From an uncultured Armatimonadetes bacterium (GTDB lineage Bacteria; Armatimonadota; UBA5829): DNA of 64,000 bases. The stretch is from assembly GCA_963711155.1 (NCBI GenBank), contig CAVQDB010000005.1:899298-963297 (forward strand), given 5' to 3'. A program made the position numbers and the translations under genes. How positions within the stretch are numbered: the first letter of the stretch is position 1; the number at the start of each line of letters is the position of its first letter. Below are positions 3,265 through 37,812 of this stretch, piece after piece. The notes under the pieces are model-generated. The model was not told the DNA's origin. It did not search any database and saw nothing but the letters and a program-made list of their open reading frames with translations.

Positions 3265-4180
3265 TCAACCGCAGTCATATCCATCGCGCCAAAAACCGGT
3301 AATGGTACCAGCTTGCGACACTCTCCGCGGTACTTGTTCCATGACGCCCCGGCCCGCGTGATACGAACTGCGGACAAGAGGAGCGGATTCGACGCGCGAG
3401 AAGCCGAGTTCGAGCGCGATCCGCTTGAGACCCTCGAACTCATCAGGGGTGTAGTAGCGGGCGATTGGGTAATGCTGTTCAGAGGGCGCCAGGTATTGGC
3501 CGACGGTGAGCATGTCGCAGCGGGCCGAGCGCAGGTCGCGCATCGTCGCCAGAACCTCATCCCACGTCTCACCGGCGCCTACCATCAGACCGGACTTGGT
3601 GCGCAAGCGGCTATCCATCCCCTTCGCCTGACGAAGCAGCTCTATCGAACGGGCGTACACTGCCTGCGGGCGCACCGCCGGATAGCATCTCTCGACCGTT
3701 CTCCACGTTGTGATTGAGCACGTCCGGGCCCGCTTCGACCACGCAGCGAAGGGCGCTCTCGTCCCCTTGAAAATCGGGAATCAGCACTTCGATACTGCAG
3801 CCGGGCACGCACTCGCGAATGGCATGGATCGTCGCGGCGAAGGCGCTCGCGCCGCCGTCGGCTAGATCGTCGCGCGTGACACTCGTGACCACCGCGTGCT
3901 TGAGGCCCAGATGCCTGATCGCCTCCGCGACGCGCCTGGGTTCATCCTCGTCAACAGCCTCCGGCCGGCCGTGATCGACCGCGCAGAACGCACAGTTACG
4001 TGTGCAAGTATTTCCCAGAATCATAAACGTAGCTGTACGCTCACGCCAGCACTCGCCTATGTTCGGGCAATGCGCGCTCTGGCAGACAGTGTGCAGTCTC
4101 GCCGACTCCACCAGCCGCTTCAGCTCGCGATATTCCGCCCCGTCGGGGGCTTTGGCTCTTATCCAATCGGGACGCTTCAT
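3265..4180 (-). CDS. lipA: Lipoyl synthase, one frame break near ~3685
   Basis: ORFs 3611..4180 and 3265..3675 join to a full LipA. Motifs: '[12 protein letters not shown]', radical-SAM 'CTRNCAFC', 'RSSYHA'. The break looks like a single extra base in 'GAGA[A]CGG'. Confidence 0.9.
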
Positions 4181-4849: not shown

Positions 4850-4885
4850 GTCCTGAGTAGCCCTGAAAGGGCGTATCGAAGGGCG
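4850..4885. repeat. REP-A family copy (GCAAGTCCTGAGTAG...CGTATCGAAGGGCG)
   Basis: Intergenic. Shares CCTGAGTAG and CGTATCGAAGGGCG with copies at 16361-16465, 16787-16823, 27528-27565 and 32987-33383. Confidence 0.75.
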
Positions 4886-4905: not shown

Positions 4906-5745
4906 TCACGCGGATGGCGAGCAGACCGCGCGCAGCAGGAAGTCCCGCGAGTCCTTCAGCGTCTGGATCGGATCGCCGTCCGACGTGATCTCCAGACAGA
5001 TGACGGCGTCGTCGCGCAGTTCGCCGATGGCCTCGATGACGGGCGGCCAGTCGATATTGCCCTGGCCCGGCGGCAGGTGCAGGTCCTTCTCGCCGAGGTT
5101 ATCATCGACATGCACCTCAAGGATAAGCTCGCCAAACTCCTTCAGGAACGCCTCGGGCCGAATACCGTCCAGCGTGCAGCTTCGGTTCGCGTGACCGACG
5201 TCGATGCATATCCCCAGCCCGGTCCGTTCCGGCTCCGCGCCGACCATGTCCAGCGCCCGCCTCAACGAATTGACCCCCGTCTTGCCAAGGTTTTCAAGCG
5301 CGAGCATCACGCCGTTATCGAGAGCGAACCTGCACAGGTCCCGCACCTCAGATTCCGCCGGCCGGCAGTCCTCGATGTCCAGCCCGAGTACGTATGGATG
5401 AATCACCATCAACGGAATCCCGATCCGCGCAGCCAGCAGCGCTTCCTCCCGAAACGCGTCCGGGTTCCACGTGTTGAGGCACGCGTGCGTGGTCATGATC
5501 TTCGCCACCCGGCATATCTCGGTCAAATGCTCGATCGTCTCCTCCGACGGTCGCTCCCTCAGCATCCAATGATCCGCCAGCAGCACCTCGACCCCGAACC
5601 CGGCCTCCACCACCCGCCGCGCCGTCTCGGGAATCGAAAGCTCGCAGCTCGACTTCCCCCGAATGCCGTAGAAGACCTCTACAGAGGCGATCATATCGCG
5701 TGCCATACTAACAACGACTGCCTCCTGCGATGGCGTCCGCGCCAA
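4906..5745 (-). CDS. Sugar-phosphate isomerase/epimerase (xylose-isomerase-like TIM barrel)
   Basis: Intact 279-aa ORF with 'MLALENL', 'ICIDVGHAN', 'EVHVDDN' metal-ligand-like pattern typical of the AP-endo2/XI TIM-barrel family. Confidence 0.7.
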   Translation of the reverse strand: MARTPSQEAVVVSMARDMIASVEVFYGIRGKSSCELSIPETARRVVEAGFGVEVLLADHWMLRERPSEETIEHLTEICRVAKIMTTHACLNTWNPDAFREEALLAARIGIPLMVIHPYVLGLDIEDCRPAESEVRDLCRFALDNGVMLALENLGKTGVNSLRRALDMVGAEPERTGLGICIDVGHANRSCTLDGIRPEAFLKEFGELILEVHVDDNLGEKDLHLPPGQGNIDWPPVIEAIGELRDDAVICLEITSDGDPIQTLKDSRDFLLRAVCSPSA

Positions 5746-5775
5746 TTCGTATTTCGTAATTCGTAATTCGTAATT
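5746..5775. repeat. Short-period tract (TTCGTAA/TTCGTAT)n between gene ends
   Basis: 'TTCGTATTTCGTAATTCGTAATTCGTAATTC' fills the gap between the lepA stop (5776) and the start of the downstream gene (5745). The same motif recurs at 19146-19190. Confidence 0.9.
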
Positions 5776-7605
5776 CTATTTGTCGTCCCCTATCTTCAGC
5801 ACACTCATAAACGCTTCCTGCGGGACTTCGACGCTGCCGATGGACTTCATGCGCTTCTTGCCCTCTTTCTGCTTTTCGAGGAGCTTGCGCTTGCGGGTGA
5901 TGTCGCCGCCGTAGCATTTGGCCGTGACGTTCTTGCGGATAGGGCTTCACGGTCGCCGCGGCGATGATCTTGCTGGCCGAGCGTCGCCTGGATTCGGACT
6001 TCATACTGCTGGCGCGGGATCACTTCCTTGAGCCGTTCGACCAGCACCTTCGCCCGCGAGTAGGCGCGGTCGCGGTGGGTGATGAACGAGAGCGCATCGA
6101 CCGGATCGCCGTTGAGCATCACGTTCGAGCTTGCTGAAAGCTTGCGAGACCTCGTAGTCGGAGAACTCGTAGTCGAACGAGGCATAGCCGCGCGTGCGGC
6201 TCTTGAGCGCGTCGAAGAAGTCCATCACGATCTCGGCGAGCGGCAGCTTGTAGTGGATCATCACCCGATCGGGCGCGGGATACTCCATGTCGACGTAGAT
6301 CCCCCGCCTCTCCCTGCAAAGCTCGATCGCATACGCCGACGTATTCGCTCGGCACGAGGATCGTCGCGATGCGACGAACGGCTCCTCCACCTCCTCGATC
6401 TCGGTCGGAGGCGGGAGATTGTTCGGGATTCTCGATATCGAGATACGTCACCGCTGGTCTTGATCACGCGATAGACCACGCTCGGCGCGGTCGCGATAAG
6501 GGTCAGATCGAACTCGCGCTCCAGCCGCTCCTGCACGATGTCCATGTGCAGCAGCCCGAGGAATCCGCATCGAAAGCCGAACCCCAGGGCCGCGGAGCTT
6601 TCGGGCTCGTAAGTAAGCGCGGCGTCATTGAGCTGAAGCTTGACCAGAGCGTCGCGCAGAGACGGTATACTGCCCGGAATCGGTCGGGAACAGGCCGCAG
6701 AACACCATCGGCTTCACATCGCGATAGCCCGGCAGAGGCTCGGTAGCCGGCCGCGACGGCGTCGGTGACGGTGTCCCCCACCCGCGTATCGCCGACGTTC
6801 TTCATGCCCGCCGTGAAGTAGCCGACTTCGCCGGCCCCGAGCGAGCTCGTCGGCTCGACATCTCGGGCTTGAACACACCGACACCCGCTGACCTCGAACT
6901 CCTTGCCGCTCGCCATCATGCGAATTCGCATGCCGGGCTTGATCTCGCCGTCCACGACCCGAAGATACGCCACGACGCCCAGGTATTGATCGAAGTGGGA
7001 GTCGAATATCAGCGCCCGCAGCGGCTTCGCCGCATCGCCCGATGGCGGCGGGACGCTCTTGACGATCGCCTCAAGGACCTCCTCGGTGCCGATTCCCTGC
7101 CTGCGCGCTGGCCAGAATCGCCTCGGAGGCATCCACCGCCACCACGTTCTCGATCTCCTCCCGCACGCGCTCGGGATCGGCCAGTTCGAGATCGATCTTG
7201 TTGATGACCGGGATGATCTCCAGATTGGCGGCCATGGCGAGGTTGGTGTTGGCGAGCGTCTGCGCCTCCACGCCCTGGCTCGCATCCACCACGAGAATCG
7301 CGCCCTCGCACGCCATCAGCGAGCGCGAGACTTCGTAGTTGAAGTCCACGTGACCGGGGGTGTCGATGAGGTTGAGCTCATAAGTCTGCGCCGTCCTTGG
7401 CCGTGTACTCCAGCCGGACGGCGGTCATCTTGATCGTGATGCCGCGCTCGCGCTCCAGGTCCATGCCGTCGAGGACCTGGTCTTTCATCTCTCGGTCGTC
7501 GATTGCGCCGGTGAACTGGAGTATGCGGTCGGCAAGCGTGGACTTGCCGTGGTCGATATGGGCTATGATGCAGAAGTTGCGGATATGCGACTGGGTCCTG
7601 TTCAT
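5776..7605 (-). CDS. lepA: Elongation factor 4 (LepA), shattered by at least 7 frame breaks
   Basis: '[18 protein letters not shown]' with ATG at 7605. '[33 protein letters not shown]...NKIDL' in ORF 7071..7349. Further pieces lie in ORFs 6503..7285, 6261..6545, 6001..6390, 5847..6185 and 5708..6004. My translation of the 3' end gives '[20 protein letters not shown]' with the stop at 5776. Confidence 0.9.
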
Positions 7606-7663
7606 TACCTCTATTCTACCAGAGGAAGGGGCGAACACGGAAGCGCGGAGAAGGGGAATCGGC

Positions 7664-7738
7664 AAAGGGGGAAAGACAGAAAGGGAGAAAGGCAGTTCTG
7701 AAGCCCTCTCTTCTACCTTTCTGGTTTTCCCCCTTTCC
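7664..7738. repeat. Purine-arm/pyrimidine-arm long hairpin (AAAGGGGGAAAGACAGAAAGGGAGAAAGG ... CCTCTCTTCTACCTTTCTGGTTTTCCCCCTTT)
   Basis: Imperfect inverted repeat between the oxidoreductase stop (7713) and the lepA start (7605). Possible terminator. Related arms occur at 47780-47817 and 61577-61773. Confidence 0.6.
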
Positions 7739-8882
7739 CGATCAATTCCCATGAGCCGCCTTGGTTCGACGCTATGGCGGCGTCGCAGATGCGCTGGACC
7801 GCGGCGCCGTCGTCGAAGCTCGGATCGCCCGGGCGCGACCCGACGACGTTGGACACGAATGAATACAGGCTGGCGATATGGAACCGCATCCAGCCCACAG
7901 GCGCCTTGCCGCCCGGCAGAACCGCCGGTTTCGGATAGTTCTGAGTCGTCTCGACCCGCTGCCAGCCGCGCTCGCCGCCGTAAACGCCACCCGCCCTCGT
8001 GTCGTCGTAGACCGACAGCCAGTTCGCATCCATCAGGTCGAACGCGATCGACCCGCGCGAGCCGTTGATCTCGAACCGCAGATCGTCGGTCGCGCCGGTC
8101 GCGATGCGAGAGACTTCGATACTGCCCAGCGCGCCGTTCGGCAGTTCGACCTGCATCATCGCCATATCATCCACCGTCACCGGCACAAGCTCGGGACTGC
8201 CGGCGTGCGTGGGCCGCTCCTTAATGAGCGTGCGGAAGCGTGCGTTGACCTTGCCAAAATCGCCGGCCAGCCAGCGGATGATGTCGATGATGTGCGTCCC
8301 GAGATCGAGCAGCGCCCCGGCCCCGCTCGTCTCGCGCCTCATCTTCCAACTGATCGGCCGCTTGGGATCGTTGTAGCCGGTGTGCAGATACACCGCGCGG
8401 AACGAGAGCACATCGCCGAGAAAACCGTCCTCCACCAACTGCCTCGCGCGCAGCAATGCCGGACAGAACCGGTTATGGAACGTCACCTGGCAGGTCAGGC
8501 CCGACTCGCGCGCCAGGTCGGCCATCTCCTGCGCGTCGGAGCCGGTCATCGCGAGCGGCTTGTCGCAGTAGACGTGCTTGCCCGCGCCAATCGCCGCCAT
8601 CGCGTGCTCCTTGTGCAGGTAGTTAGGGGTGCAGACGTTGATGATGTGAATGTCCGGTCTTTCGAGAAGGTCTCTGTAGTCGGGCGTCGCAAACTCATAG
8701 CCGGCGCTCTCCAATGCGACCGCTCGGCTGGCCTCACTTGGCGCGCACGCGCCCACCAGCTTGATACGAAACGGCAGCGGGTGGTAGACGAACGGCAGCG
8801 ACGCATATGCGTAGCTGTGCATCTTGCCCATATAGCCGTAGCCAACCATCCCAACGCCAAGAGTCGAAACGTCCTTGCCCAC
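7713..8882 (-). CDS. Gfo/Idh/MocA-family NAD(P)-dependent oxidoreductase
   Basis: Intact 389-aa ORF with N-terminal Rossmann '[14 protein letters not shown]' and 'EKPLA'-like 'CDKPLAMT'. Confidence 0.8.
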
Positions 8883-8901
8883 GCTCAGATCTCCTCAATA
8901 A

Positions 8902-8993
8902 CACGTCATGAATAACACGTCATGCTCGAACTTGATTCAGCATCCAGACCACCAGCATCCACACTTGGACCCTGAATCAAATCCAGGGTGACG
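8902..8993. repeat. REP-B family element (GTCATGCTSGAACTTGATTCAGCATCC ... GGACCCTGAATCAAATCCAGGGTGAC)
   Basis: Two mutually inverted arms, each itself a small palindrome. Sits in a divergent intergenic region. Confidence 0.85.
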
Positions 8994-9026
8994 TGCTGCC
9001 ACACGTATTATATCAGCGGACGCGAA

Positions 9027-9055
9027 TGACCCGCAATGCTCATCTGTGGTATACT
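9027..9055 (+). promoter_or_regulatory. Putative sigma70-type promoter (extended -10 TGgTATACT) for the sulfatase gene
   Basis: TATACT at 9050-9055 preceded by TGG. Weak -35 TGACCC at 9027-9032. GGAGAC Shine-Dalgarno lies 6 nt before the ATG at 9086. Confidence 0.4.
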
Positions 9056-9085
9056 GGCGCAAACCAACCCCGCTGGAGACACTAC

Positions 9086-10579
9086 ATGAACGTCATTCTG
9101 ATCCTTATCGATAGCTGCAATCGCCATTATCTCTCCCCTTACGGATGCACCACCGTCTCGACGCCCAATGTATGCGCGCTAGCCGACAGAGGAGTCACGT
9201 TCACCAACCACTTCATCGGCTCAGCGCCCTGCATGCCGGCCCGTCGCGAGATGATGACCGGACGCCGGGAGTTCCTCTACAGGGGCTGGGGGCATATCGA
9301 ACCGTTCGACGCGCCCGTTGCGCGTGAGTGCGCCAGGGCCGGCGCGGTGACGCAGATGGTCACCGACCACTACCACTACTGGGAGAACGGCGCCCACGGC
9401 TACATAGAGCACTTCAACGGCTGCGAGATGATCCGCGGCCACGAAAACGACTATTGGAAGACCGAAAAGCAGCCCAACGAGCCCGATTGGGTCGCCGCTA
9501 TCAACAAACACAGGCCGGGCTGGGGCAGCAGATACTATCGCAACGTCGCTCAATTCAAAAGTGAGGAAGACTTCTTCTCGCCCAGGGTGTTCAAGGCCGC
9601 GGCCGAGTGGCTGGAGGCGAACCGAAACCAGGACAAGTTCTTCCTCCAGATCGAGAGCTTCGACGCCCACGAGCCGTTCCACGTGCCGGAGCCATATCGG
9701 TCCATGTACACCGATGACCTGAACCCCGAATACACCTGCTGGCCACCATATCAGAACGGCGAGCAGCGGAAGGCGTTCCTGAACCAGACCAGCCTCGAGG
9801 AGCTTGCGTACATTAGAGCGCAGTATCAGGGCAAGCTGACCATGGTCGATAAGGCGCTCGGGCAGGTCTGGGCGGTGATGGACAAGCACCATCTATGGGA
9901 CAACACGATGGTCATCCTCACAGCCGACCACGGTCACGAGCTCGCCGAGGCCATCACCGACCTTAGCGAGATCACGCCGGACGCGCGCGACGCCACCATG
10001 CGAATCCCGTTCGGCAAGCAGCACCCGCACTACCTCAGCCACGCCAACATCCCGCTCGTCGTCTGGCATCCGCACCTGACCAACGGCGGCGCGCGAACTG
10101 ATGCGATCACCTGCTCGGTCGATATGTATGCGACGGTGCTGGACGCACTCGGCGCGAGCGGCGTCAACGCGGTCCACAGCCGCTCAATACTCCCCATTCT
10201 TGCGGGCGAGAGCCCCGGAAGGGATTTCGCCTACTGGGGCACGTTCGGCGAGGGCTGCTGCTGCACGGATGGCGAACACGTCCTCTCCCAGGGGGCGAAA
10301 AGGGGCGGCGAGCTCTACTGGTACAGCGCTCTGGGCAGTTCGCCGGACGCCGTCGCCGGCAAGTTCATCAAGGGAGTAGATTGCCCGGTCTGGCGAATTC
10401 CAAGAGCCGCCAACTTCGAGTTCCCGTCGATCCTCTACAGGCGGGACACGCCATTGTTCAGCGAGACGAATATCATCGAGCAGAATTCCGACGTCGCCGA
10501 CCGGCTCCGCAAGCGCCTCAAAGATAAACTGGACGAAGAAGGCTGCCCGACCGAGCAGTACGACAGGCTGGGCCTGTAG
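9086..10579 (+). CDS. Sulfatase (formylglycine-dependent arylsulfatase family)
   Basis: Intact ORF. 'ILILIDSCNRH', C-x-P-x-R motif 'SAPCMPARREMMTGR', and 'LTADHGHEL'. I prefer the ATG at 9086 because of its SD, rather than the track start at 8993. Confidence 0.85.
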   Translation: MNVILILIDSCNRHYLSPYGCTTVSTPNVCALADRGVTFTNHFIGSAPCMPARREMMTGRREFLYRGWGHIEPFDAPVARECARAGAVTQMVTDHYHYWENGAHGYIEHFNGCEMIRGHENDYWKTEKQPNEPDWVAAINKHRPGWGSRYYRNVAQFKSEEDFFSPRVFKAAAEWLEANRNQDKFFLQIESFDAHEPFHVPEPYRSMYTDDLNPEYTCWPPYQNGEQRKAFLNQTSLEELAYIRAQYQGKLTMVDKALGQVWAVMDKHHLWDNTMVILTADHGHELAEAITDLSEITPDARDATMRIPFGKQHPHYLSHANIPLVVWHPHLTNGGARTDAITCSVDMYATVLDALGASGVNAVHSRSILPILAGESPGRDFAYWGTFGEGCCCTDGEHVLSQGAKRGGELYWYSALGSSPDAVAGKFIKGVDCPVWRIPRAANFEFPSILYRRDTPLFSETNIIEQNSDVADRLRKRLKDKLDEEGCPTEQYDRLGL

Positions 10580-13393
10580 TCACTGCTCGGCGGTGATGGC
10601 GATCAGGAACGGCGATGCCTCCGTGCCTTCCGAAACAAAGTCGATGCTGGCCACCTTCACGTCCGGCCGCCGGTTCTTCCACCGCGTTTCGCTGACGCCG
10701 ATGAGCCTTCCGTCCTGCGCGCGTGTGCGCCACGCGAACCCGTACGACATCGCCGTGGACTGATCGTCCCAAGCGTGGATGTTCCGGCCGTAGATCAGCC
10801 CGATGGTCTCGGTCTTGCCGTCTTCATAGTGAACGATATACTCGCCCACCTTCGCGCCGTTATCGGCCGCGAACGCGCAACCGTGCAGGAAATCCAGCGC
10901 GTTCAGCTTCGTGTTCACCTCGATCCCGTCAACGCGTTTGGGGAAGGTGCCGGGTAAGGCTCCGCCGTCGAGCATAATAGCCGCGGGCGAGTTCAGCCTT
11001 GCCGGCCGAATTCTGAACGGCGTCCCCTCCATCTCCACAAGTCCCTCGGGCATCTCGCGCAGATCGTTGCCGCGGCCGATTCCCAGCCAACCCATCGCGC
11101 GGCCGGAGTCAACGCGGGAGATGTTGCAGTAGCGATCGAGCCTCACTGTCGAAAAGCTGGGGCAGGTGTTTGAGCTCTGCCCATACCAGAGCCTGCCGAA
11201 CACGCAGTCGGGCCGGTAAGGCAGAGCGTCCACTGCGGGGCGAATCGGGTTCCATGCCCAGGCCGCCGAGAGGACGTAGGCGTAGACCTGGTCGGGCTGG
11301 TCGCGCAGTGTTTCCTGCTCGGTCTTCCAGCCGGTCCACGTGGTCTGCAACATGCCCGCGATGCCGCACCGCGCCGCGAAGCTGGAGAACGTGAATATGT
11401 TCCTGGGGTCGTACCAGGTGCATCCGACAACGGAAAACCCATGCGCCTGGTAGAACTCAACGGTCGGATACTCCGTGCTGGGGCCGTAGCGCCAATCGTT
11501 GATGAGGATGTCCTTGGGCAGTTCGTCTATCATCTCACGATAGCCGGGTCTGGGCAGCACATCGCCCCACACCATCATCTTGCAGCCCTTCGACTTGAGA
11601 TGCTCGTGTATCTTCAGGATGTCCTGGATGTAGAGCTTCTCCTTGCCAACGGCCTGACAGCGCTCGTCGCACGGCATCCTGCCACGCATGTCGAACTCGT
11701 CGTGGCCGGCGTGCAAATACTGCGGATGCCCGAACAGCTCGATTGCCTCGTCCATTATGCTGAAGATGAAGTCATAAGACTTGGGGTTCGTCATGCAATA
11801 GCAGTAGGGCGCCTTCGGATCCTCGGCGATGTCGAGATTGGCGCCGTTGCGAAACGCGTATTCCAGGTGGCCCGGCGACTGCACCAGCGGCGTGACGGTA
11901 ATATGGTGCCGCCGCGCGAACTCGACCAGCTTGGGCACATCCTCGCGCGGCATGAAGTTGGATTTGTCGATCACCTCGGGATGGCTCGCCCACGCGATCT
12001 TGTCCGTCTGCAGGACGATGTGGTTGATCTTGAGCGGCGCCAGAACGTTGTCGATAAGCTTGCTGATGTAGCTCAGCGCATCGCGCGACGTGAGCAGATG
12101 CACTCCGCGGAACGCAAACCGCGGGAAGTCGCGGACATTGACGGCCGGCACAGTGATAGAGCCGCTCACGCCACGCTTGAGCAGTTGCTTCAGCGTCTGA
12201 GCGCCGTAGTACGTGTCCGCCGGCGACGTCCCCGAGACCACGATGCGCTCCGGCAGCACGTCAACGACGTAGGCGCCCGTTCCGTAGCGCGACCGCGGCA
12301 TCCGCACTGAATCGCGATCGCACACCGCATGCAGCAATCGATTGCGAGCGCTCTCGCCGACTATGATGACGTTGCTCGCCGCTCCCGGTTCGCTCCCGAG
12401 TGCGAAGGAATGCACCACGCCGAGCCGCGCCCCGCCGAGCTTCTCGATGGCCGAGTTGATCTCGTCGACCGTCCACATGTCCTCTTCGCCGGCGTCGGCG
12501 TCGATGACGATCTGGGTGTCGGCGTTGATGCGGAACGGTTGCTTGCTGAGGCGATGGTGCATTTCTTGCGGCTCGGGGACGATATGGTCGGACGACCTGA
12601 GCTGAGCCGCCTGCTCCGAGACCGCTTCAGCGCCTTCCGGGGCGGCGGGGTCGGCTTTCAGCGCAACAGGCGCGCCGCGGAACGTGGCAAACCTGAATGC
12701 CGCCTCCGGCGCGACGAGCTTGCCGAAGCGGGAGCACGTCGAAAACCATCTCGGCACAGGCGACCAACTGCTCGTTTCACCGTGCGGGTGCTCGTTGCGG
12801 CAGAAGTTGACGCGCCAGCAGCGCTCGTTTCTGCCGAGCGGGCGAAGGGTATCGAACGGGATCGCGATCTCAGCCACCCACTTGCCGGCCAGCCGTGTAG
12901 CCGCCGCCTGCCACTTCTCCTGGCTCCGGACCCAGTCCGGCTGGTTGTAGCTCTTGGCGCCAGCGACATTCACCACAAACTGGTGCGTCTTCGCGTGGTC
13001 GGCAACCGCGTAGGGCGAGATCCATATCTCGACCGAATCGTCCTGCCAGACCGGCTCACCGTCTTGAGCGAACTCGCTCTTGACCCGGTCCATCTCGTCC
13101 TCGAAGCACTCGAACGAAATGTAGAGCGTGGACCGGTCATAGCAGACGCGGACCTTCGTGCGCTGTCCGGCCGGCTCGCCTGAACCAACCAAATGGAACT
13201 CGTCCACGCCTGGCGCGCTGGACCAAGCCTGGTCTCCCACCTTGCCGTCAACTTGCGGCGCATATCCTACGTAAGTGGGTACAACTACTGGAACACCGCT
13301 CATTGTGCCTCCGTACGCGCCAGAGCGAACCAGTAATGCACAGAGAAGAAGTCCGCATAAGACTACCGCGCGTCCTGCTAACATGCTCCACAC
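10580..13393 (-). CDS. Secreted CBM9/DOMON-like domain + GH20-like glycoside hydrolase (beta-N-acetylhexosaminidase family)
   Basis: Intact 937-aa ORF with a signal peptide. The N-terminal 'VDGKVGDQAW...DSVEIWISP...AIPFDTL' is CBM9-like. 'FPRFAFRGVHLL' and 'HAGHDEF' are GH20-like (H-x-G-x-D-E). Confidence 0.7.
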   Translation of the reverse strand: MWSMLAGRAVVLCGLLLCALLVRSGAYGGTMSGVPVVVPTYVGYAPQVDGKVGDQAWSSAPGVDEFHLVGSGEPAGQRTKVRVCYDRSTLYISFECFEDEMDRVKSEFAQDGEPVWQDDSVEIWISPYAVADHAKTHQFVVNVAGAKSYNQPDWVRSQEKWQAAATRLAGKWVAEIAIPFDTLRPLGRNERCWRVNFCRNEHPHGETSSWSPVPRWFSTCSRFGKLVAPEAAFRFATFRGAPVALKADPAAPEGAEAVSEQAAQLRSSDHIVPEPQEMHHRLSKQPFRINADTQIVIDADAGEEDMWTVDEINSAIEKLGGARLGVVHSFALGSEPGAASNVIIVGESARNRLLHAVCDRDSVRMPRSRYGTGAYVVDVLPERIVVSGTSPADTYYGAQTLKQLLKRGVSGSITVPAVNVRDFPRFAFRGVHLLTSRDALSYISKLIDNVLAPLKINHIVLQTDKIAWASHPEVIDKSNFMPREDVPKLVEFARRHHITVTPLVQSPGHLEYAFRNGANLDIAEDPKAPYCYCMTNPKSYDFIFSIMDEAIELFGHPQYLHAGHDEFDMRGRMPCDERCQAVGKEKLYIQDILKIHEHLKSKGCKMMVWGDVLPRPGYREMIDELPKDILINDWRYGPSTEYPTVEFYQAHGFSVVGCTWYDPRNIFTFSSFAARCGIAGMLQTTWTGWKTEQETLRDQPDQVYAYVLSAAWAWNPIRPAVDALPYRPDCVFGRLWYGQSSNTCPSFSTVRLDRYCNISRVDSGRAMGWLGIGRGNDLREMPEGLVEMEGTPFRIRPARLNSPAAIMLDGGALPGTFPKRVDGIEVNTKLNALDFLHGCAFAADNGAKVGEYIVHYEDGKTETIGLIYGRNIHAWDDQSTAMSYGFAWRTRAQDGRLIGVSETRWKNRRPDVKVASIDFVSEGTEASPFLIAITAEQ

Positions 13394-13458
13394 GATTGCG
13401 TCCTCATGGCCGCTTGAACTTAGTATACCAGACTCGCTTTACACTCGCAAGTCACTTC

Positions 13459-16132
13459 TTACTCACCAAGCGCGCGCCTGCGCTCGATGAGCTTCTCCCC
13501 CTTCTCACGGAGTTCGGTAACGATCCTACGCTCCTTTTCCACAATCTCGGCCGGCGCACGCGAGATGAACTGCTGGTTTGCCAGCTTCGACTCGTGCGGA
13601 GCAAGCTCTTTCGAAATCGCGTCAAGTTCAGCATCGATGCGTTCCAGTTCCTTCGCGACGTCGATAAGCCCAGCGACCTCCATATAGAGATCGAGTCCCA
13701 GAAAGATGCGCGGCAAGATATTTGCCCTTGTCCGAATCCGCTATGGAATCGGCGAAGCTGAGCCCTCCTATCCGAGCAAGCGACTTGATGCTCTCCGCAT
13801 TGCGCTCGACCGCGGCTCTTGCGGCGTCCGACCCCACCACAGCACGTCCACCGGCTTGCTCGGCGCCGCGCCCAGCTCGGCCCGGAGGTTCCTCACGGCC
13901 CTGACAGCGTCCATCACGGCGTTCATCTCAGCCTCGGCCGCTTCATCGATAAGTGACAAATCGGCCTCAGGGAACGGCGCGGTCATGATGCGACTCGCCC
14001 TCGTGCGGCAGCGCCTGCCATATCTCCTCGGTGATGAACGGCATGATCGGGTGCAGCAGGCGCAGGGTCGTCTCCAGCACGTGCATAGCAGCATCGCCTG
14101 CGCCTGCGCCTTTGCGTCGCCGCCCGCGCGCAGCCTCGGCTTGGCAAGCTCGATATACCAGTCGCAGAACTCGCTCCACACGAACTCATAGAGCCCGTTC
14201 GCGGCATCGTCGATGTCGTAGGTGGTGAAGCTTCTGTTGACCAGCTCGATAGTGCGGTTCAGGCGAGAGAGAATCCAGCGGTCTTCGAGGGCTGCGCCCG
14301 AGGACCCCTCCCCGACCCTCCCCGCTCGGAGAGGGCGTATAGCCCTCAAGGTTCATCATCACAAACCGCGAGGCGTTCCAAATCTTGTTGCCGAAGTTGC
14401 GCACGTTCTCCACGCGCTTGTCGGAGAACCGAATGTCCTGGTTCTTGCCGGCCTGCTGCATCAGCGCGTAGCGCAGCGCGTCCGCGCCGAATTGCTCGAT
14501 CAGATCCAGCGGGTCCACGCCGGTCCCGAGCGACTTGCTCATCCGCTTGCCCTCTTCGTTGAGCACGGTGGCGTAGATATACACGTCCTTGAACGGAATC
14601 TCGTCGAGATACTCCAGGCTGGAGAAGATCATTCGCGCGACCCAGAGATAGATGATCTCCCGCGCGGTCACGAGCACGTCGGTCGGGTAGAAGTAGTCCA
14701 GCTCAGGCGTCTTTGCAGGCCAGCCCAGCGTCGCGAACGGCCACAGCGCCGAGGAGAACCACGTATCGAGCACGTCCGGGTCCTGAGTCACATTCGAGCT
14801 GCCGCACTTCGAGCACGGCCTCAAGCTCGGTCTTGGCGGCCGTATACTGCCCGCAGTCCTCGCACTTCCAGACCGGAATCCGATGCCCCCACCAGAGCTG
14901 CCGGGAGATGCACCAGTCGCGCACGTTCTCCATCCAGTCGATGTAGATCGCTGCGTAGCGGTCCGGGAAGAACTTCACCTTGCCCTGCTTCACCACGTCG
15001 ATCGCCGGCTCGGCAAGCTCCTTCATCCTGCAGAACCACTGCTCGCGACAGCAGCGGCTCGATCACGGTGTGGCAGCGCTCGCACGTGCCCACGGAGTGC
15101 GTGTAGTCCTCGATCTTCTCGATCAGGCCCTGCGCTTCAAGGTCGGCGACGACCTTCTCTCGCGCCTCGTAGCGATCCAGCCCCTCGTAGCGCGCGCCGG
15201 CTTCCTGGGTCATGCGAGCCGTCCGGGCCGATCACGACCACCTGCGGCAGGTTGTGCCGCAGGCCGATCTCGAAGTCGTTGGGGTCGTGCGCGGGCGTCA
15301 CCTTCACCGCGCCGGTGCCGAACTCCATGTCCACGAACTCGTCGTCAACGATCGGGAATCATGCGGTCCGTCAGCGGCAGCTTCACGTTCTTGCCGAGCA
15401 TGCCTTGTAGCGCTCGTCGTCGGGATTCACCGCCACCGCCGTATCGCCGAGCATCGTCTCGGGCCGAGTCGTCGCCACCACCACATAGCCCGAACCGTCC
15501 TCCAGCGGGTATCGCAGATGCCAGAGGTGGCTGTGCTGCTCCACGTACTCGACCTCGATGTCGGAGATCGCCGTGTGGCAGCGCGGGCACCAGTTGATGA
15601 CGCGCGCGCCGCGATAGATTAGGCCCTTGTCGAACAGCCGCACGAACGATTCCAGCACCGCGTCGACGTAGCCCTCGTCCATCGTGAACCGCTCGCGCTC
15701 CCAGTCGAACGAGAACCCCATCGTCTTGAACTGGTGCAGGATCTGCCCGCCGTATTCCTCCTTCCAGGCCCACACGCGCTTGAGGAACTCCTCGCGGCCG
15801 AGGTCGTGCCGGGTGAGACCCTCCTCGGCAAGCTGCTGCTCCACCTTGTTCTGGGTCGCGATCCCGGCGTGGTCCGTGCCGGGCAGGCAGAGCGTTTCGT
15901 AGCCCTGCATGCGCTTCCAGCGCGTGAGCACGTCCTGGATCGTGTAGCACAGCGCGTGGCCGATGTGCAGCGAGCCGGTCACGTTCGGCGGCGGGATGGT
16001 GATGCAATACTCCGGCTTGCCGGGCTTCGCTTCGGCGTGGAAGTAGTCCTTCTCAAGCCAGAACTCATACCATTTGCTCTCCACCAGGGCCGGATCATAC
16101 ACTGTCGGCAATTGTGCGGTCTTTTCAGTCAT
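13459..16132 (-). CDS. valS: Valine--tRNA ligase, at least 8 frame breaks
   Basis: HIGH 'SLHIGHAL', '[14 protein letters not shown]', KMSKS '[10 protein letters not shown]', and a C-terminal coiled coil. Pieces lie in ORFs 15383..16177, 15137..15334, 14821..15213, 14703..15026, 14186..14824, 13768..14349, 13967..14179, 13628..13840 and 13459..13716. ATG at 16132 has AGGAG 7 nt upstream. Confidence 0.92.
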
Positions 16133-16200
16133 GGTTACGCTCCTGTGTAGCGGTTGAGTCTCAAATCCAAAATCCAAAATGCAAAATCCAAAATGCAGAA

Positions 16201-16233
16201 GCCCCCATCGTCCAACTCAAGGACGACGGGGGC
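16201..16233 (-). terminator. T-box terminator hairpin
   Basis: GCCCCCGUCGUCC-UUGAGUU-GGACGAUGGGGGC followed by UUCUGCAUUUUGGAUUUUG. The 5' arm can alternatively pair with GGGGG upstream of the T-box core, forming the antiterminator. Confidence 0.8.
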
Positions 16234-16282
16234 CTATTCCCTCGACGTGGTACCACCTTGATTCCCCCGCGCTGCTCGACGT

Positions 16283-16380
16283 ACTCCGCTAGCCCTGAGT
16301 AGCCGCATACTCCGTTAGCCCTGAGTAGCCGCATACTCCGTTAGCCCTGAGTAGCCGCATACTCCGCTAGCCCTGAGTAG
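16283..16380. repeat. 26-bp tandem repeat, ~3.7 copies (ACTCCGYTAGCCCTGAGTAGCCGCAT), derived from the REP-A arm
   Basis: Perfect or near-perfect head-to-tail copies at 16283, 16309, 16335 and 16361. The last copy runs into a full REP-A element (16361-16465). Confidence 0.95.
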
Positions 16381-16545
16381 CGAGGCACGAGCGTATCGAA
16401 GGGCGATGCCTGAAGCACACGCTTCGATACGGCCGCCAGACCCGGCCTACTCAGCACTTACGGTGTTGCTGTTCCAACGCCGACAAGCGCGAGGCTCAAA
16501 CAGCTATATCGGGCTTACCCGGCGGGTTCTACTCGGCCTCACCTC

Positions 16546-16708
16546 GTCATGCTCAACTTGATTCAGCATCCACGCTCACGTCATGCTGAACTTGATTCAG
16601 CATCCACGCTCATGTCACGCTGAACTTGATTCAGCATCCACGCTCATGTCATGCTGAACTTGATTCAGCATCCACTCCGGATGGGTCCTGAATCAAGTTC
16701 AGGATGAC
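16546..16708. repeat. REP-B cluster: four 36-bp tandem hairpin units plus one inverted arm
   Basis: GTCATGCTGAACTTGATTCAGCATCCACGCTCAY repeated 4 times, then GGGTCCTGAATCAAGTTCAGGATGAC. Confidence 0.95.
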
Positions 16709-16786
16709 GCGCGTGCACACGGCCTTTCTTCCCACGGCATACGGGGCGACGTTCGCGCGGCGGCAACCTGGAAACCTCACACCTCC

Positions 16787-16823
16787 GGCCCTTCGATACG
16801 CTCGTTCCTCGCTAATCAGGGCC
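16787..16823. repeat. REP-A hairpin lying inside the T-box Stem I distal loop
   Basis: GGCCCTTCGATACGCTCGTTCCTCGCTAATCAGGGCC, closed by GGCCC/GGGCC. Near-identical to the copy at 27528-27565. Confidence 0.85.
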
Positions 16824-16893
16824 TACGGTTTCCTCTCTCTAGGCGCCCACCGCCTACTCTTCCCCGCAATTGCCTTTGAATCAACTACCACCC

Positions 16894-16922
16894 ATTGTAG
16901 CGGATGGTTCGGGGGATGTAAA
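16894..16922 (-). promoter_or_regulatory. Sigma70-type promoter of the valS leader
   Basis: Minus strand reads TTTACA, 17 nt, TACAAT. This places the TSS about 20 nt upstream of the Stem I base helix. Confidence 0.65.
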
Positions 16923-16936
16923 GGTGCAAGGCAACC

Positions 16937-17782
16937 CTAAGGCCCTCTAGGTCCGTGGTTCACCTCGACAACATCTGCTTTCCAGTACCCGCTTCCACCT
17001 TGCCATTGCTTGCCAGTTCGCCGCGGCATGTGCAGACGCTCGCGATGCGAGACCAGTGGGCGCGGCGGAGGGCCAACATACTCGTTGTGCGAGCATGAAG
17101 ACCACAGCCAGTCGCCCACCCGCCAGAATTGGCTCTGGCCGTATTCGTTCTCGGAAGATGACACAGGCCCTACATCCAGAGCGAGATTCCAATAGCCTCG
17201 GCGGCCGCGGTCTACGCGCCCGAGATGCGCCCTCAGATCGCCCGGTAGTTCCTGATCCTTCCATTCGACTGCGAGATAAGACTTGTCGAACGCAAGGAAG
17301 TCGTGAAACGGTATCGGAACCCCATCGCGCATTGCGTAACGCGGTATCACGTGGCCGTTGGGGTCATACACACTCGTCCGCTTTTGGATGTCGTTCGTGG
17401 CATAGTTCACCACGACGACGTATGGCCGCATCTTCGTCTTTCTGCTTCGAACGACGAACTTGCACGCGCAGCCTTTCGTCTCAACGCACCGGATCACCAG
17501 TGTGCGGTAGATAGTGTCGCCCGGTCGAAAGGGCCAGTCTCCGCGCAGTCTGAGTGTAGCCGGAAGGACCTGCGAGAGCCGGATCACGGCCTCGTCCCCG
17601 ACATGCGGCATCACCGGACCGTAAGAATACTCCTTGTGTGTACGGCACCCGCCAACGCGCACTACTGCAGCCACGACGACCGCAACCAACACGCACAGCG
17701 ATATGGCAACCGGCTTCGCGTACCTCATAGTGGATGTGACGAGCGGCGCGTCTGCAGGGTTCCCGCATTCCCCATTCGGCAT
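16937..17782 (-). CDS. Hypothetical membrane-anchored protein (no recognisable domain)
   Basis: Intact 281-aa ORF. A TM helix 'VAISLCVLVAVVVAAVV' follows the internal Met 'MRYAKP'. Lies 17 nt downstream of the ParB-like gene on the same strand. Confidence 0.55.
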   Translation of the reverse strand: MPNGECGNPADAPLVTSTMRYAKPVAISLCVLVAVVVAAVVRVGGCRTHKEYSYGPVMPHVGDEAVIRLSQVLPATLRLRGDWPFRPGDTIYRTLVIRCVETKGCACKFVVRSRKTKMRPYVVVVNYATNDIQKRTSVYDPNGHVIPRYAMRDGVPIPFHDFLAFDKSYLAVEWKDQELPGDLRAHLGRVDRGRRGYWNLALDVGPVSSSENEYGQSQFWRVGDWLWSSCSHNEYVGPPPRPLVSHRERLHMPRRTGKQWQGGSGYWKADVVEVNHGPRGP

Positions 17783-17799
17783 TCCCCATTCCCCATTTG

Positions 17800-18951: not shown

Positions 18952-19189
18952 TGACAGCAGGCTCCTTGCACGATGTTCTCAGAAATGGGGTGTTCGGAGA
19001 GCATCCCATTTCTGACGGCGCGACCCAATCTCCATTATGGGCAGACTGGGCGCACTAGAGGAGACTTCCCGCACAGATTCCAGCACAATTACGAGGGAGA
19101 AGGCAATCGCGGATTACGAATCACGAGTTACAGGCTGCCCGCTACCCATGGTCCTTCGTATTTCGTAATTCGTATTTCGTAATTCGTGA

Positions 19190-28688: not shown

Positions 28689-29678
28689 CTACATCCCCAC
28701 CCGGCTCAGATGCAGGAATATGAGATAGGCAATCCCGCAAGATATGATGGCCAGCGCGTAGATGCACCAGATCACCTGGCGATGCGAGAGGCCCATCTTG
28801 ACCAGCCGATGGTGCAGGTGGGTCGTGTCCGCCTCGCCGATCTTCTTGCCCGACGTCGCCCGCCGCAGCACAACGAAAGTCGTATCGAACAACGGCACCG
28901 CCAGGATCAGCACCGGCACCGCCACGGCCAGCATCGCGGTGATCTTCATCGTGCCCAGGATCGATATTCCGGCCAGCGTGAAGCCAAGAAACTGAGCGCC
29001 CACCGTCCCCATGAACACCTTCGCGGGCGGATAGTTGTATCGCAGGAACCCCACCGCCGCCCCAAACAGCGCCGCCGCCATCACCGCCGACATCTGCCTC
29101 GTGGCGAAGTGCGCGGCCATGACCATCAGCGTCAGCGCGGCTATTGCCGAGATTCCCGCCGCGAGACCGTCGAGGCCGTCCATGCAGTCCACGGCCTTCG
29201 TCACCATCAACACCCACATCATGGTGATCGGTATGCTCGCCCACGGCGCGAACTTCACGTGAATCGGGCTTGTGATCTCGGTGATCTGCACCCCGAACAG
29301 CGACAGGACGAGCGCCGCGCCGAGTATGCTGCCCGCCTGGACCCATCCCGGCAGCTCGAATCTGTCGTCGAGGATACCCATCAGCGCCACCAGCGTTCCG
29401 CCCACGAGAATCCCCAGCACCATGTGCCTCTGGACGGCAACAAACTGCTTCTGAGCTTCGGTGACCGGCTGCGGCAGCAGCATATACACGACGCCGACCG
29501 CCGCGATGAACGCAACGTACATCGCCAACCCACCCATCAATGGGGTCGGGCGGGCGTGCACGCGTCTGCCGCCGGGGTGCGCGACAATGCCCCGCCTCTC
29601 CGCAAAGCGGCGAACAACGGGGGTCAGTATAAATGCAACGACCGCGGCAATCCCCGCGGCTATCAGGTTGAGGACCAT
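28689..29678 (-). CDS. MraY/WecA-family polyprenyl-phosphate GlcNAc-1-phosphate transferase (WecA/TagO-like)
   Basis: Intact 329-aa polytopic ORF with 'HARPTPLMGGLAMY', 'ILDDRFELP', 'AVDCMDGLDGLAAG' and 'HLHHRL'. Confidence 0.85.
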   Translation of the reverse strand: MVLNLIAAGIAAVVAFILTPVVRRFAERRGIVAHPGGRRVHARPTPLMGGLAMYVAFIAAVGVVYMLLPQPVTEAQKQFVAVQRHMVLGILVGGTLVALMGILDDRFELPGWVQAGSILGAALVLSLFGVQITEITSPIHVKFAPWASIPITMMWVLMVTKAVDCMDGLDGLAAGISAIAALTLMVMAAHFATRQMSAVMAAALFGAAVGFLRYNYPPAKVFMGTVGAQFLGFTLAGISILGTMKITAMLAVAVPVLILAVPLFDTTFVVLRRATSGKKIGEADTTHLHHRLVKMGLSHRQVIWCIYALAIISCGIAYLIFLHLSRVGM

Positions 29679-29687
29679 AAAGCTTGT

Positions 29688-29745
29688 GTCATCCTGAACT
29701 TGATTCAGGAACCACGCCTGGATGCTGAAACGAGTTCAGCATGAC
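29688..29745. repeat. REP-B element (two inverted arms)
   Basis: GTCATCCTGAACTTGATTCAGGAACC...GGATGCTGAAACGAGTTCAGCATGAC, lying between the wecA-like start and the glyA stop. Confidence 0.9.
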
Positions 29746-29756
29746 AAGGCACTGCG

Positions 29757-31055
29757 CTAGTAGACGGGGAAGGCGTCGGCCAGCGCCCGTGCTTCCCTTG
29801 CGACCTCCTGTCGCGCGGCGACCGCCGCCGGCGCCTCGCCGAGATTCGTAAGGCAGCGCACGATCAGGCCGGCGATGGTCTGCATGTCGCTCTCGGTCAT
29901 GCCGCGCGTGGTAACGCAGGGCGTCCCGATGCGGATGCCGCTGGTAACCATCGGCTTTTCCTTATCGAACGGGATCATGTTCTTGTTGACCACGATCCCG
30001 ACCTCATCCAGCGCCTCCTGGGCGATCTTCCCGGTGATGCCGAGCGGCGTCACGTCGGCCAGCATCAGATGATTGTCCGTGCCGCCGCTGACGAGCCTCA
30101 AGCCGCGCTTCGCCAGCCCATCGGCCAGAGCCGCGGCGTTCCGGCGAATCGCGCGCTGGTAGTCGGTAAATGATGGCTCCATCGCTTCCTTGAGGCACAC
30201 CGCCTTCGCCGCTATCACGTGCATCAGCGGCCCGCCCTGCAGGCCGGGGAACACGGCCTTATCGATTGCCTTTGCGTGCTCGGCCTTGCACAGAATCATA
30301 CCCGAGCGCGGCCCGCGCAGCGTCTTGTGTGTCGTAAACGTCACCACATCGCAGTAAGGCACGGGAGACGGATGCTCACCCGCCGCCACCAGCCCGGCGA
30401 TGTGCGCGATATCGGCCATCAGTATCGCTCCGACCGCGTCCGCGATCTTGCGAAAGCGCTCGAAGTCGATGATGCGAGGATAGGCGGTCGCGCCTGTCAT
30501 GATCACGCGCGGGCGGCACTCCTTTGCCAACCGCTCGATCTCGTCGTAGTCGAACACCTCGGTTGTCGGGCTGACGCCGTAGTAGCACGGCTTGTAGAGA
30601 ATCCCAGAGAAGTTTACGGCGCTGCCGTGCGTAAGGTGCCCGCCGTGGGCCAGTTCCATCGCCAGGAACGTGTCGCCCGGCTGCATGAACGCGAAATAGG
30701 CCGCCATGTTCGCCTGGGAGCCGGCGTGCGGCTGGACGTTAGCGTGATCGGCCCCGAAAAGCTCCTTTGCGCGCTCGATGGCGATCGCTTCCACGACATC
30801 GACGTTCTCGCACCCGCCGTAGTAGCGCCTGTTGGGGTAACCTTCGGCGTATTTGTTGGTGAGCACCGAGCCGGTCGCTTCCAACACCGCGCGGCTTACG
30901 TAGTTCTCCGATGCGATGAGCAGTATCTTATGGTTCTGCCGGTCGATATCCGCCTGAATCGCTTCCGCGATCTCCGGATCCACCTGCGACAGCGGCAGGT
31001 CCAGCCCTTTTGCTATGGCACGCTCGCTAACTCCCAACTCGTTCCTCCCTTGCAC
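29757..31055 (-). CDS. glyA: Serine hydroxymethyltransferase
   Basis: Intact 432-aa ORF with 'LIASENY', '[11 protein letters not shown]' and the PLP site '[12 protein letters not shown]'. Confidence 0.95.
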
Positions 31056-32639: not shown

Positions 32640-32690
32640 TGACGCGCTTCGATAAGGCCGCCAGCCTGAGCGCTTACAGTTAGGACAGCC

Positions 32691-37185: not shown

Positions 37186-37812
37186 TGCGGTTTCGGGGCG
37201 AAAAGGAGAACGGTCAAGAACTTGCCCGTCCAGCACATCCAAGCCCTGGACGCCTGCATCCGGCTCCGGAAGCCTTCCAACGACGATACTTCGGGGCTGC
37301 TTTTCGCCCCGAAGGCCCCGCGACTATCCACCAGCCTGCCAATCGCGGACGGCCACGCACTGCGCACCGGCATCGCCCACAGCGGTCTTGCGAACCGCTC
37401 CGGGGAAGCCCCCAACGACGATACTTCGGGGCTGCTTTTCGCCCCGAAGGCCCAGCGACTATCCACAAGGCTGCCAGTCGCGGACGGCCACGCACTGCGC
37501 ACCGGCATCGCCCACAGCGGTCTTGCGAACCGCTCCGGGGAAGCCTCCAACGACGATGCTTCGGGGCTGCTTTTCGCCCCGAAGGCCCAGCGACTATCCA
37601 CCAGCCTGCCAATCGCGGACCCGCCATCTGGCTTGTGCACTCCCGACAGGTCCGGTGCATTCGGGGCGAAAAGCGAGCCCCGAAAGATCACTCTGTGCTT
37701 GACCAGGGCCTTCGGACGGCCAGCCGTCTAGCCCCGAGGCATCGAAAGATCACTCTGTGCCTGACCAGGGCCTCCAGACGGCGGGCCATCCAGCCCCGAG
37801 GCATCGAAGTCG
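37186..37812. repeat. REP-C cluster: ~135-bp tandem (2.7 copies, 37263-37625) plus 61-bp tandem (2 copies, 37686-37810)
   Basis: Core hairpin CTTCGGGGC-TGCTTTT-GCCCCGAAG with flanking CCAACGACGATRCTT and GACTATCCACCAGCCTGCCAATCGCGGAC. The second module reads GATCACTCTGTGCYTGACCAGGGCC...AGCCCCGAGGCATCGAA. Confidence 0.9.

Follow-up and report, generated by a model that had tools for sequence, protein, structure and literature searches.

T-box leaders are textbook examples of RNAs with a shape tightly matched to their ligand, in which the Stem I distal loop is seen as a precise docking platform, while actinobacterial ileS T-boxes are translational, have a truncated Stem I and work with Stem II and Stem IIA/B without the platform for the tRNA elbow. 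The ileS class is mentioned in PMC9177973, which also describes stem Sa of staphylococcal glyS, a lineage-specific 42-nucleotide (nt) extra hairpin in a T-box that is still functional. In the pneumococcal trp leader a BOX repeat lies in a T-box-regulated 5' untranslated region of ~1 kb, and RNA-seq suggests that regulation persists (PMC3049150). Here we describe the leader of valS, the gene of valyl-tRNA synthetase (ValRS), which occupies 16922-16133 on the minus strand of a 64-kb stretch of an uncultured Armatimonadetes contig (hereafter the window). The leader is a T-box with the valine specifier GUC, in which all the parts collected in Table 1 are present in the expected order, and, measured between the base of Stem I and the terminator, it is ~670 nt long compared with ~240-320 nt in relatives. 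We favour, with fair confidence, a transcription-attenuating switch that senses tRNA-Val, has had its hairpin tips colonised by repeats of the repetitive extragenic palindromic (REP) type, tolerates these according to their position and likely continues to function.

Results

Comparative identification of the leader

On sequence grounds the T-box identity of the leader is secure, and the decisive evidence is comparative. Relatives are loci from metagenome-assembled genomes (MAGs) and metagenomes, numbered L001 onward. An nhmmer profile of six orthologous Armatimonadota leaders, from which the window sequence was left out, matches a 281-nt excised leader (16823-16787, 16716-16545 and 16482-16277 removed) over its full length (165.9 bits, E 6e-53). 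Across the 64 kb of unedited sequence the profile identifies no other locus, and this one in two pieces (16877-16488 and 16274-16196; 94.7 and 54.1 bits) that abut the insertion in Stem III, the match breaking precisely at that point. The excised leader can also be aligned with the six orthologs from one end to the other, none of the conserved blocks showing any change. RNAalifold run on this alignment (A1, with the window sequence in its excised form) predicts a consensus fold that contains Stem I, Stem II, Stem IIA, Stem III and the terminator. Of its 59 base pairs, 20 show compensatory changes, and these are distributed over the terminator and Stems I, II and III. Two checks proposed in a preliminary description of this DNA gave the same picture: the excised sequence adopts the canonical architecture when folded alone (-126 kcal/mol, z -4.4), and the proposed Stem I pairing is conserved, its helices covarying and GUC remaining invariant in the orthologs. 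The valine specifier and its agreement with a downstream valS, both put forward in that description, also stand, as the seven orthologous leaders all carry GUC (CGAANGUCGCC) and the frame-corrected ValRS is 78% identical to that of L009.

Covariance-model searches behave differently on this locus. Neither the whole window nor 16100-16960 yielded a T-box match for the intact leader in Rfam, at the gathering threshold or at E<=10, and the only matches were spurious ones of miRNA families on the hairpins of one repeat, REP-B. Because the intact sequence gives no T-box signal, the leader was split into halves. Stem I searched alone matches RF00230 positions 1-119 (18.1 bits, E 0.026), the alignment placing 46 inserted nt at the terminal loop, while the 3' core searched alone matches positions 183-216, including the antiterminator helices (13.5 bits, E 0.35). 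An RF00230 search of the native leader, as suggested earlier, thus gave a divided answer, with the two ends recognised separately and the intact sequence not at all. The window leader stays below the RF00230 gathering threshold (93 bits); to take a sub-gathering score after excision as a refutation would be unfair, because the closest insertion-free relatives, L001 and L002, also fall below it.

Anatomy of the leader

The promoter, Stem I, specifier, T-box sequence, terminator, Shine-Dalgarno sequence (SD) and ATG were all located in the order previously given for the minus strand (Table 1). Hexamers of the TTTACA/TTGACC-17-TAGAAT type stand at the matching relative position in L001, L009, L004, L006 and L110, and transcription would start near 16887. 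A consensus scan of 16050-17050 found no internal promoter within the repeats that would bypass Stem I.

Table 1. Coordinates of the valS leader, its parts and the repeats inserted in it (window positions)
Feature	Position	Strand	Basis or remark
Promoter-like TTTACA-17-TACAAT	16894..16922	-	Only sigma-70-like site in 16050-17050 (consensus scan)
T-box Stem I	16740..16868	-	RF00230 1-119 match; ortholog alignment; covariation in Stem I helices
Stem I base helix UGCGGGG/CCCCGUA	16868-16862 / 16746-16740	-	
GA/AGUA (K-turn) motif	16860-16853	-	
AG bulge AGAGA	16838-16834	-	
Stem I distal helix	16833-16827 / 16776-16770	-	
REP-A copy 1, 37-nt hairpin	16787..16823	-	Dispersed-family member; 35-nt repeat core 16788-16822
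T-loop 2 UGUGA, in GGAGGUGUGA	16781-16777	-	
Specifier loop GAACGUCG	16754-16747	-	GAACGUCG-CCCC aligned to RF00230 specifier loop
Specifier GUC (Val), then purine G at 16747	16748..16750	-	Downstream gene valS
Stem II	16522..16735	-	Ortholog alignment; compensatory changes in base helix
REP-B array, ~4 tandem 34-nt hairpin units and one inverted	16545..16709	-	Repeat search
Stem IIA/B pseudoknot region CGGGUAAGCCCG AUAUAGC UG UUUGAGC	16494..16521	-	Nearly invariant in orthologs; IIA hairpin via RNAalifold
Stem III	16265..16494	-	Arms pair in excised fold and in local fold with insert; helix covaries in orthologs
Composite insertion in Stem III loop, 212 nt	16485-16274	-	
REP-A copy 2, inverted relative to copy 1	16370..16404	-	35 nt, 94% complementarity
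26-nt tandem, x3.8	16282..16381	-	Built of REP-A end and flank
T-box sequence AAUCAAGGUGGUACCACG	16246..16263	-	RF00230 183-216 match; invariant in all orthologs
Intrinsic terminator, 15-bp stem	16199..16235	-	Compensatory changes in helix
Heptamer tandem, UGGAUUU type, 4.6 copies	16163..16197	-	Between terminator and SD; fourth repeat of leader
SD AGGAG (16144-16140) and valS ATG (16132-16130)	16130..16144	-	Alignment starts at residue 1 of orthologous ValRS
valS coding region	13462..16132	-	~10 frameshifting indels; 883-aa ValRS once frame-corrected

The extra length lies in three insertions of dispersed repeats, as first proposed and as now seen in repeat searches, in the ortholog alignment and in the split Rfam matches. 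All three occupy apical loops, those of Stem I, II and III, and leave helices and conserved motifs uninterrupted. Firstly, REP-A copy 1 begins 3 nt past the 5' arm of the distal helix and stands immediately 5' of GGAGGUGUGA. The distal loop of 50 nt thus consists of GUA, the 37-nt hairpin and GGAGGUGUGA, compared with a canonical 11-12 nt (G-G/U-N-N-GGUGNRA), and the 46-nt insertion at the RF00230 terminal loop bears out the earlier placement of a REP-A hairpin in the Stem I distal loop. The double T-loop motif AGNNA...UGNNA is present as AGAGA and UGUGA, the hairpin splitting the loop 5' of UGUGA.

Secondly, the REP-B array, formerly assigned to the stretch between Stem I and Stem II, is in fact contained within Stem II, as the ortholog alignment and the base helix GUGGG (16735-16731)/CCCGC (16526-16522) show. 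An inner GGCC/GGCC helix and the purine-rich internal loops AAGAAA and GAGUAGAA are retained, and only the apical part is replaced by the array. Its tandem part has a period of 34 and 3.9 copies (16545-16675, 95% identity), with the inverted unit reaching to 16709.

Finally, the third insertion had been said to sit where Stem III is expected. The REP-A element and the 26-nt tandem are indeed there; however, they lie inside the Stem III loop rather than in place of the stem, and the arms CCUCGCGCU (16494-16486) and AGCGCGGGG (16273-16265) form an intact 9-bp base. The 'CCGUAA' previously read as Stem IIA/B falls inside this insertion and had to be given up in favour of the conserved block at 16521-16494, where CGGGUAAGCCCG-AUAUAGC corresponds to 16521-16503. 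Downstream of Stem III, the UGGU bulge of AAUCAAGGUGGUACCACG lies at 16255-16252, and the 5' arm of the terminator shares sequence with the antiterminator 3' strand.

Dispersed repeat families in the window

The inserted repeats belong to dispersed REP-like families and are not local oddities, because the REP-A, REP-B and 26-nt motifs each recur within the window far above the expectation from shuffled sequence (8-9 matches against 0-0.2). REP-A-like matches start at 4870, 16390, 16788, 27526 and 33008-33368, and REP-B matches at 8925, at 16551-16703 and in an inverted pair at 29693/29720. Both families resemble REP elements and bacterial interspersed mosaic elements (BIMEs) in being short imperfect palindromes of ~20-40 nt that are present in many copies, are mostly intergenic and occur in tandem or as inverted pairs.

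The surroundings of several copies could be described. The REP-B copy at 8925-8945 lies in a divergent intergenic region, and the inverted REP-B pair (29693-29740) lies between open reading frames (ORFs) judged by eye to encode an SHMT/glyA homolog (29757-31055) and a MraY/WecA-like protein (28689-29735). A 120-nt tandem (x3.3, 99% identity) that contains a REP-A-like element occupies 32987-33383 in the plus-strand ORF 32670-34556; it is in frame in this DEAH-box helicase ORF, between an N-terminal motif and the remaining core (NCBIfam positions 58-99 and 195-562). Further large tandems stand at 37268-37620 (135 nt x2.6), 37681-37808 (62 nt x2.1) and 47945-48287 (72 nt x4.8). Tandems of 7 nt (or 14 nt), like the heptamer array past the valS terminator, are found in intergenic spots at 5744-5781, 16163-16197, 17760-17797, 19155-19187 and 42539-42569.

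Orthologous leaders in relatives

An N-terminal ValRS fragment used as query retrieved Armatimonadota MAGs at 74-89% identity. The leaders of L004 (98.0 bits), L005 (94.3 bits) and L006 (97.6 bits) pass the RF00230 gathering threshold, lie upstream of valS and likewise carry a GUC specifier. At the position in the RF00230 model where the window has REP-B, they hold unrelated Stem II inserts of 65, 98 and 53 nt, respectively, and the threshold is passed nonetheless. In L001, L002 and L009 the homologous leaders are compact and stay just below the gathering score, the first two free of insertions and L009 with a hairpin in the distal loop only.

Other features of these loci vary. One small membrane-protein ORF separates the terminator from valS in L001 (3476-3978), L009 (3450-3930) and L005 (3370-3912), and several ORFs do so over 2.9 kb in L006 (1141-4000); the window has none of these intervening ORFs. 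L003 and L004 share 82% ValRS identity; L004 has the T-box, but upstream of L003 valS (3300-4010) there is neither a T-box core nor an AG-box, and the L003 lineage seems to have lost its leader or acquired a different one. In L004 the tip of Stem II is a long hairpin of short TTAGTAG/CTAACAA-type repeats (3640-3745), and two REP-like hairpins stand past the terminator and ahead of the valS start (3860-3950). Colonisation of valS leaders by repeats seems common in this clade.

A recurrent hairpin at the Stem I distal loop

Metagenomes were scanned for Stem I elements with a GUC specifier that exceed the normal length by 15-45 nt. The scan returned 34 loci, of which ~20 carry the extra hairpin low in Stem I and the remainder in the distal loop. 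Across MAGs and metagenomes, distal-loop hairpins are present in eleven other distinct valS T-boxes: L009 (= L089), L090, L096, L103, L104, L108, L110, L113, L082/L098, L084 and L106. Their distal loops extend over 24-60 nt, with 0-4 nt between the 5' arm and the hairpin and with G(G/C)UGNRA left free on the 3' side; all the inserts fold as hairpins, and a T-box core follows 55-190 nt later in every case. On contigs that extend far enough, a ValRS gene lies downstream, at 31-92% identity to the L009 ValRS, indicating a phylogenetically broad group. L090 reaches 98.7 bits with RF00230 despite its distal-loop hairpin. At the point occupied by REP-A copy 1, the closest relative, L009, has a 31-nt hairpin of different sequence, and L009 and L089 share an identical Stem I, with ValRS proteins 92% identical. 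Between lineages the hairpin sequences are unrelated. A literature search found no paper on T-boxes of Armatimonadota and none describing a T-box variant with a distal-loop hairpin.

Homology of the REP-A hairpin with those of L009 and L110 was considered, but the similarity of their ends (GCCCUG.../...CAGGGC; GUA|(A)GGCC(C)UGAUU) is too weak for homology to be called. The L110 insert (8487-8536) starts GUA|AGGCCUGAUUCGAGCGG, which resembles GUA|GGCCCUGAUUAGCGAGG in the window and may reflect homology or coincidence. In metagenomic GUC-specifier T-boxes from L083, L085-L088, L093-L095, L099, L102, L105, L111, L112 and L114, a conserved extra hairpin (GAGAGAGCAG..CUCUCUC) stands in lower or middle Stem I before the AG bulge, which suggests a three-way junction in Stem I of this group.

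The position of the distal-loop hairpins has a parallel in the ribosome. In 23S rRNA numbering, helix 78 (H78) ends just before the bulge loop of T-loop 2 in the L1 stalk, so that an extra helix stands 5' of T-loop 2. The Stem I apex and the L1 stalk share the double-T-loop module AGNNA...UGNNA (Lehmann et al., PMC3664808); in the stalk the bulge loop bearing T-loop 2 comprises residues 2162-2173 and H78 contacts T-loop 1, and Stem I has been described as having no equivalent of H78 (PMC3664808). We propose that the distal-loop hairpins may occupy the topological position of H78, the equivalence being one of topology only. As H78 lies 5' of T-loop 2 just as these hairpins do, the distal-loop site is a recurrent and structurally rationalised permissive position.

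The same comparison raises the question of whether the extra helices have been co-opted, either as an H78-like buttress of the elbow platform or, through the REP-A duplex described below, to time folding or to affect processing or stability, which would shift the set point of the switch. Recurrence of the hairpin across many lineages, its stability in L009/L089, the contact of H78 with T-loop 1 (PMC3664808) and the precedent of a functional lineage-specific insertion in stem Sa (PMC9177973) are all consistent with a gain of function. However, the window hairpin is one copy of a dispersed repeat found at unrelated intergenic sites, the hairpins of other lineages are unrelated in sequence, and the closest relatives L001 and L002 have none, making co-option very improbable for this leader.

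Folding of the full leader and points against a working switch

Besides the failure of the intact leader to match Rfam, several features of the locus speak against a functional switch. REP-A copies 1 and 2 are inverted relative to each other, and a duplex between them has a predicted energy of -69.8 kcal/mol compared with -16.1 kcal/mol for the local hairpin of copy 1. The full-length minimum free energy structure (-335.8 kcal/mol), a predicted equilibrium fold, pairs the two copies at the expense of the distal helix, and such a duplex could disable the tRNA-elbow platform. Moreover, specifier and T-box sequence are ~470 nt apart, a strain on a kinetically controlled switch, and the terminator U-tract is weak and interrupted (CUUCUGCAUUUUGG), an interruption that is common to L002 and L009. 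Neither the window nor the retrieved loci contain a tRNA-Val gene, and the match of the UGGU bulge with A73 is thus predicted only. Finally, the indels of valS, namely 8 insertions and 2 deletions, mostly +1 and none in homopolymers, leave two readings, an unreliable local sequence or a dead locus. The inverted REP-A pair and the frameshifted valS, like the heptamer tandem, had escaped the preliminary description.

The first of these obstacles may be one of equilibrium rather than of folding during transcription. Stem I and its local hairpin are transcribed ~400 nt earlier than REP-A copy 2, which has a local pairing partner just upstream; because Stem I would form so much earlier and copy 2 has this partner, co-transcriptional (kinetic) avoidance of the duplex is plausible.

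Local sequence quality and the state of valS

The indels also speak for a reading in which valS and its T-box are a decaying pseudogene copy that gathered repeats after selection was lost, with an intact valS elsewhere. The 2.7 kb of valS, with ~10 frameshifting indels, would then stand against three intact long ORFs in the neighbouring 5.7 kb between lepA and valS (7713-13438), which is otherwise clean; a long-range REP-A duplex would be tolerable where nothing depends on the switch, and a weak U-tract fits such a locus. Against this, the frame-corrected ValRS has no in-frame stops, sits on a short branch and is closer to every ortholog than the orthologs are to each other (window ValRS-L001 75.5%, L009-L001 72.6%). 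Since the protein shows neither stops nor excess amino-acid change, its sequence argues that valS is under purifying selection. The indels, being mostly +1 insertions outside homopolymers, also sit poorly with decay, all T-box motifs are intact, the three insertions avoid helices, and a second valS was not seen in the window. Decay is further countered by lepA (EF4; ~5780-7640, minus strand), 6 kb away, which is shredded alike into at least seven pieces in successive frames (TIGR01393 positions 2-594) and points to local sequence error rather than to two independent pseudogenes. Because lepA is shredded in the same way and the evolution of ValRS is not accelerated, the valS frameshifts are quite probably local sequence or assembly errors and not pseudogenisation, and we regard a decaying locus as unlikely.

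Clean stretches of the contig are interspersed with error-prone ones, although frameshifts are firmly shown for valS and lepA only, a window-wide phase walk of GC content at third codon positions (GC3) being too noisy. The frameshifts are a warning of locally unreliable assembly stretches and therefore call for caution over single bases of the leader and over tandem copy number. They lend some weight to an alternative in which the repeat content or copy number is itself wrong and some units or insertions are absent from the organism, given also that dispersed repeats are a classic cause of misassembly. The 22-mer across the junction of Stem I and REP-A had no match in metagenome contigs, which gives no independent confirmation and is uninformative. 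An exact-match look-up of the protein from the neighbouring ParB-like ORF likewise gave no record, and no independent copy of the exact locus was found. However, correct T-box continuation in the register of the orthologs flanks each insertion on both sides, which a chimeric join would not restore. The tandem units are moreover in perfect register with 0% indels, and relatives carry independent repeat or hairpin insertions at matching sites, so that an assembly artefact is distinctly unlikely.

Discussion

Judged from the sequence, the most likely state of the valS leader is that of a still-working, at worst attenuated switch, in which the repeats are tolerated passengers filtered by position. 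The preliminary description left two outcomes side by side, tolerance of the extra helices or broken regulation; the apical position of the insertions, the variable Stem II of relatives and the eleven distal-loop hairpins narrow these to tolerance as the better supported. The switch is probably functional because the insertions lie only at hairpin tips, because the Stem I site is H78-like and because eleven other T-boxes have a hairpin there.

We infer that the leader binds tRNA, antiterminates and has retained its function, as follows. Stem I would present the GUC specifier to the anticodon of tRNA-Val, while AGAGA and UGUGA would form a double-T-loop platform against which the tRNA elbow stacks. 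None of Stem II, Stem IIA/B and Stem III is missing. Pairing of the UGGU bulge with the uncharged ACCA-3' end would stabilise the antiterminator over the terminator at 16235-16199. Members of two dispersed REP-like families, with their tandem amplifications, occupy the apical loops of Stem I, II and III, and the heptamer tandem stands past the terminator.

With ~410 nt of repeat DNA in three tips and all motifs kept, the leader amounts to a natural insertion scan of the free positions of a T-box. What is new is its exceptional length, the repeat passengers in three domains and the recurrent platform hairpin that resembles the L1 stalk; the T-box itself is a known kind of system. The recurrence of distal-loop hairpins in unrelated valS T-boxes ties the apex of the riboswitch to L1-stalk architecture in a way that can be tested. 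The locus also exposes a blind spot in annotation, as covariance-model searches miss such leaders, and T-boxes in poorly studied phyla are probably under-annotated. This significance is tempered by the doubtful local assembly quality and by the fact that function is predicted only.

A bolder proposal, which we hold tentatively and think more apt to fail than to stand, is that the distal-loop hairpin marks an unrecognised natural T-box variant with H76-H77-H78 topology. On this view the platform would be so modular that chance insertions of repeats could build and rebuild it, and the complementarity of REP-A to a copy 383 nt downstream could give a transcription-timed inactivation.

Compared with canonical transcriptional T-boxes (RF00230; B. 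subtilis tyrS and glyQS), the window leader shares a K-turn Stem I, a specifier loop, an AG bulge and a distal T-loop, together with Stem II, Stem IIA/B, Stem III, the 14-nt T-box sequence with its UGGN bulge, a terminator and a matching aminoacyl-tRNA synthetase gene. It differs in length (~670 against ~220-300 nt) and in the 37-, ~165- and 212-nt repeat insertions in three apical loops. Stem Sa is unlike these insertions in belonging to the antiterminator/terminator domain, in being genus-conserved and in not being a copy of a dispersed repeat. The pneumococcal BOX lies between two complete T-boxes, whereas the repeats of the window are inside structural domains of one T-box, and neither precedent places a repeat inside the Stem I platform. 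Unlike the actinobacterial ileS T-boxes, the window leader keeps both T-loop motifs and the terminator; by analogy, their platform-free mode offers a possible fallback route if the platform of the window leader is compromised. The L1 stalk (23S helices 76-78) is unlike a T-box in being part of rRNA and bound by protein L1. It resembles the window leader in its head-to-tail AGNNA...UGNNA double T-loop, which forms a platform for the tRNA elbow, and in the placement of H78 between the 5' strand of H77 and T-loop 2, which is likewise where the hairpins of REP-A, L009, L090 and L096 are found.

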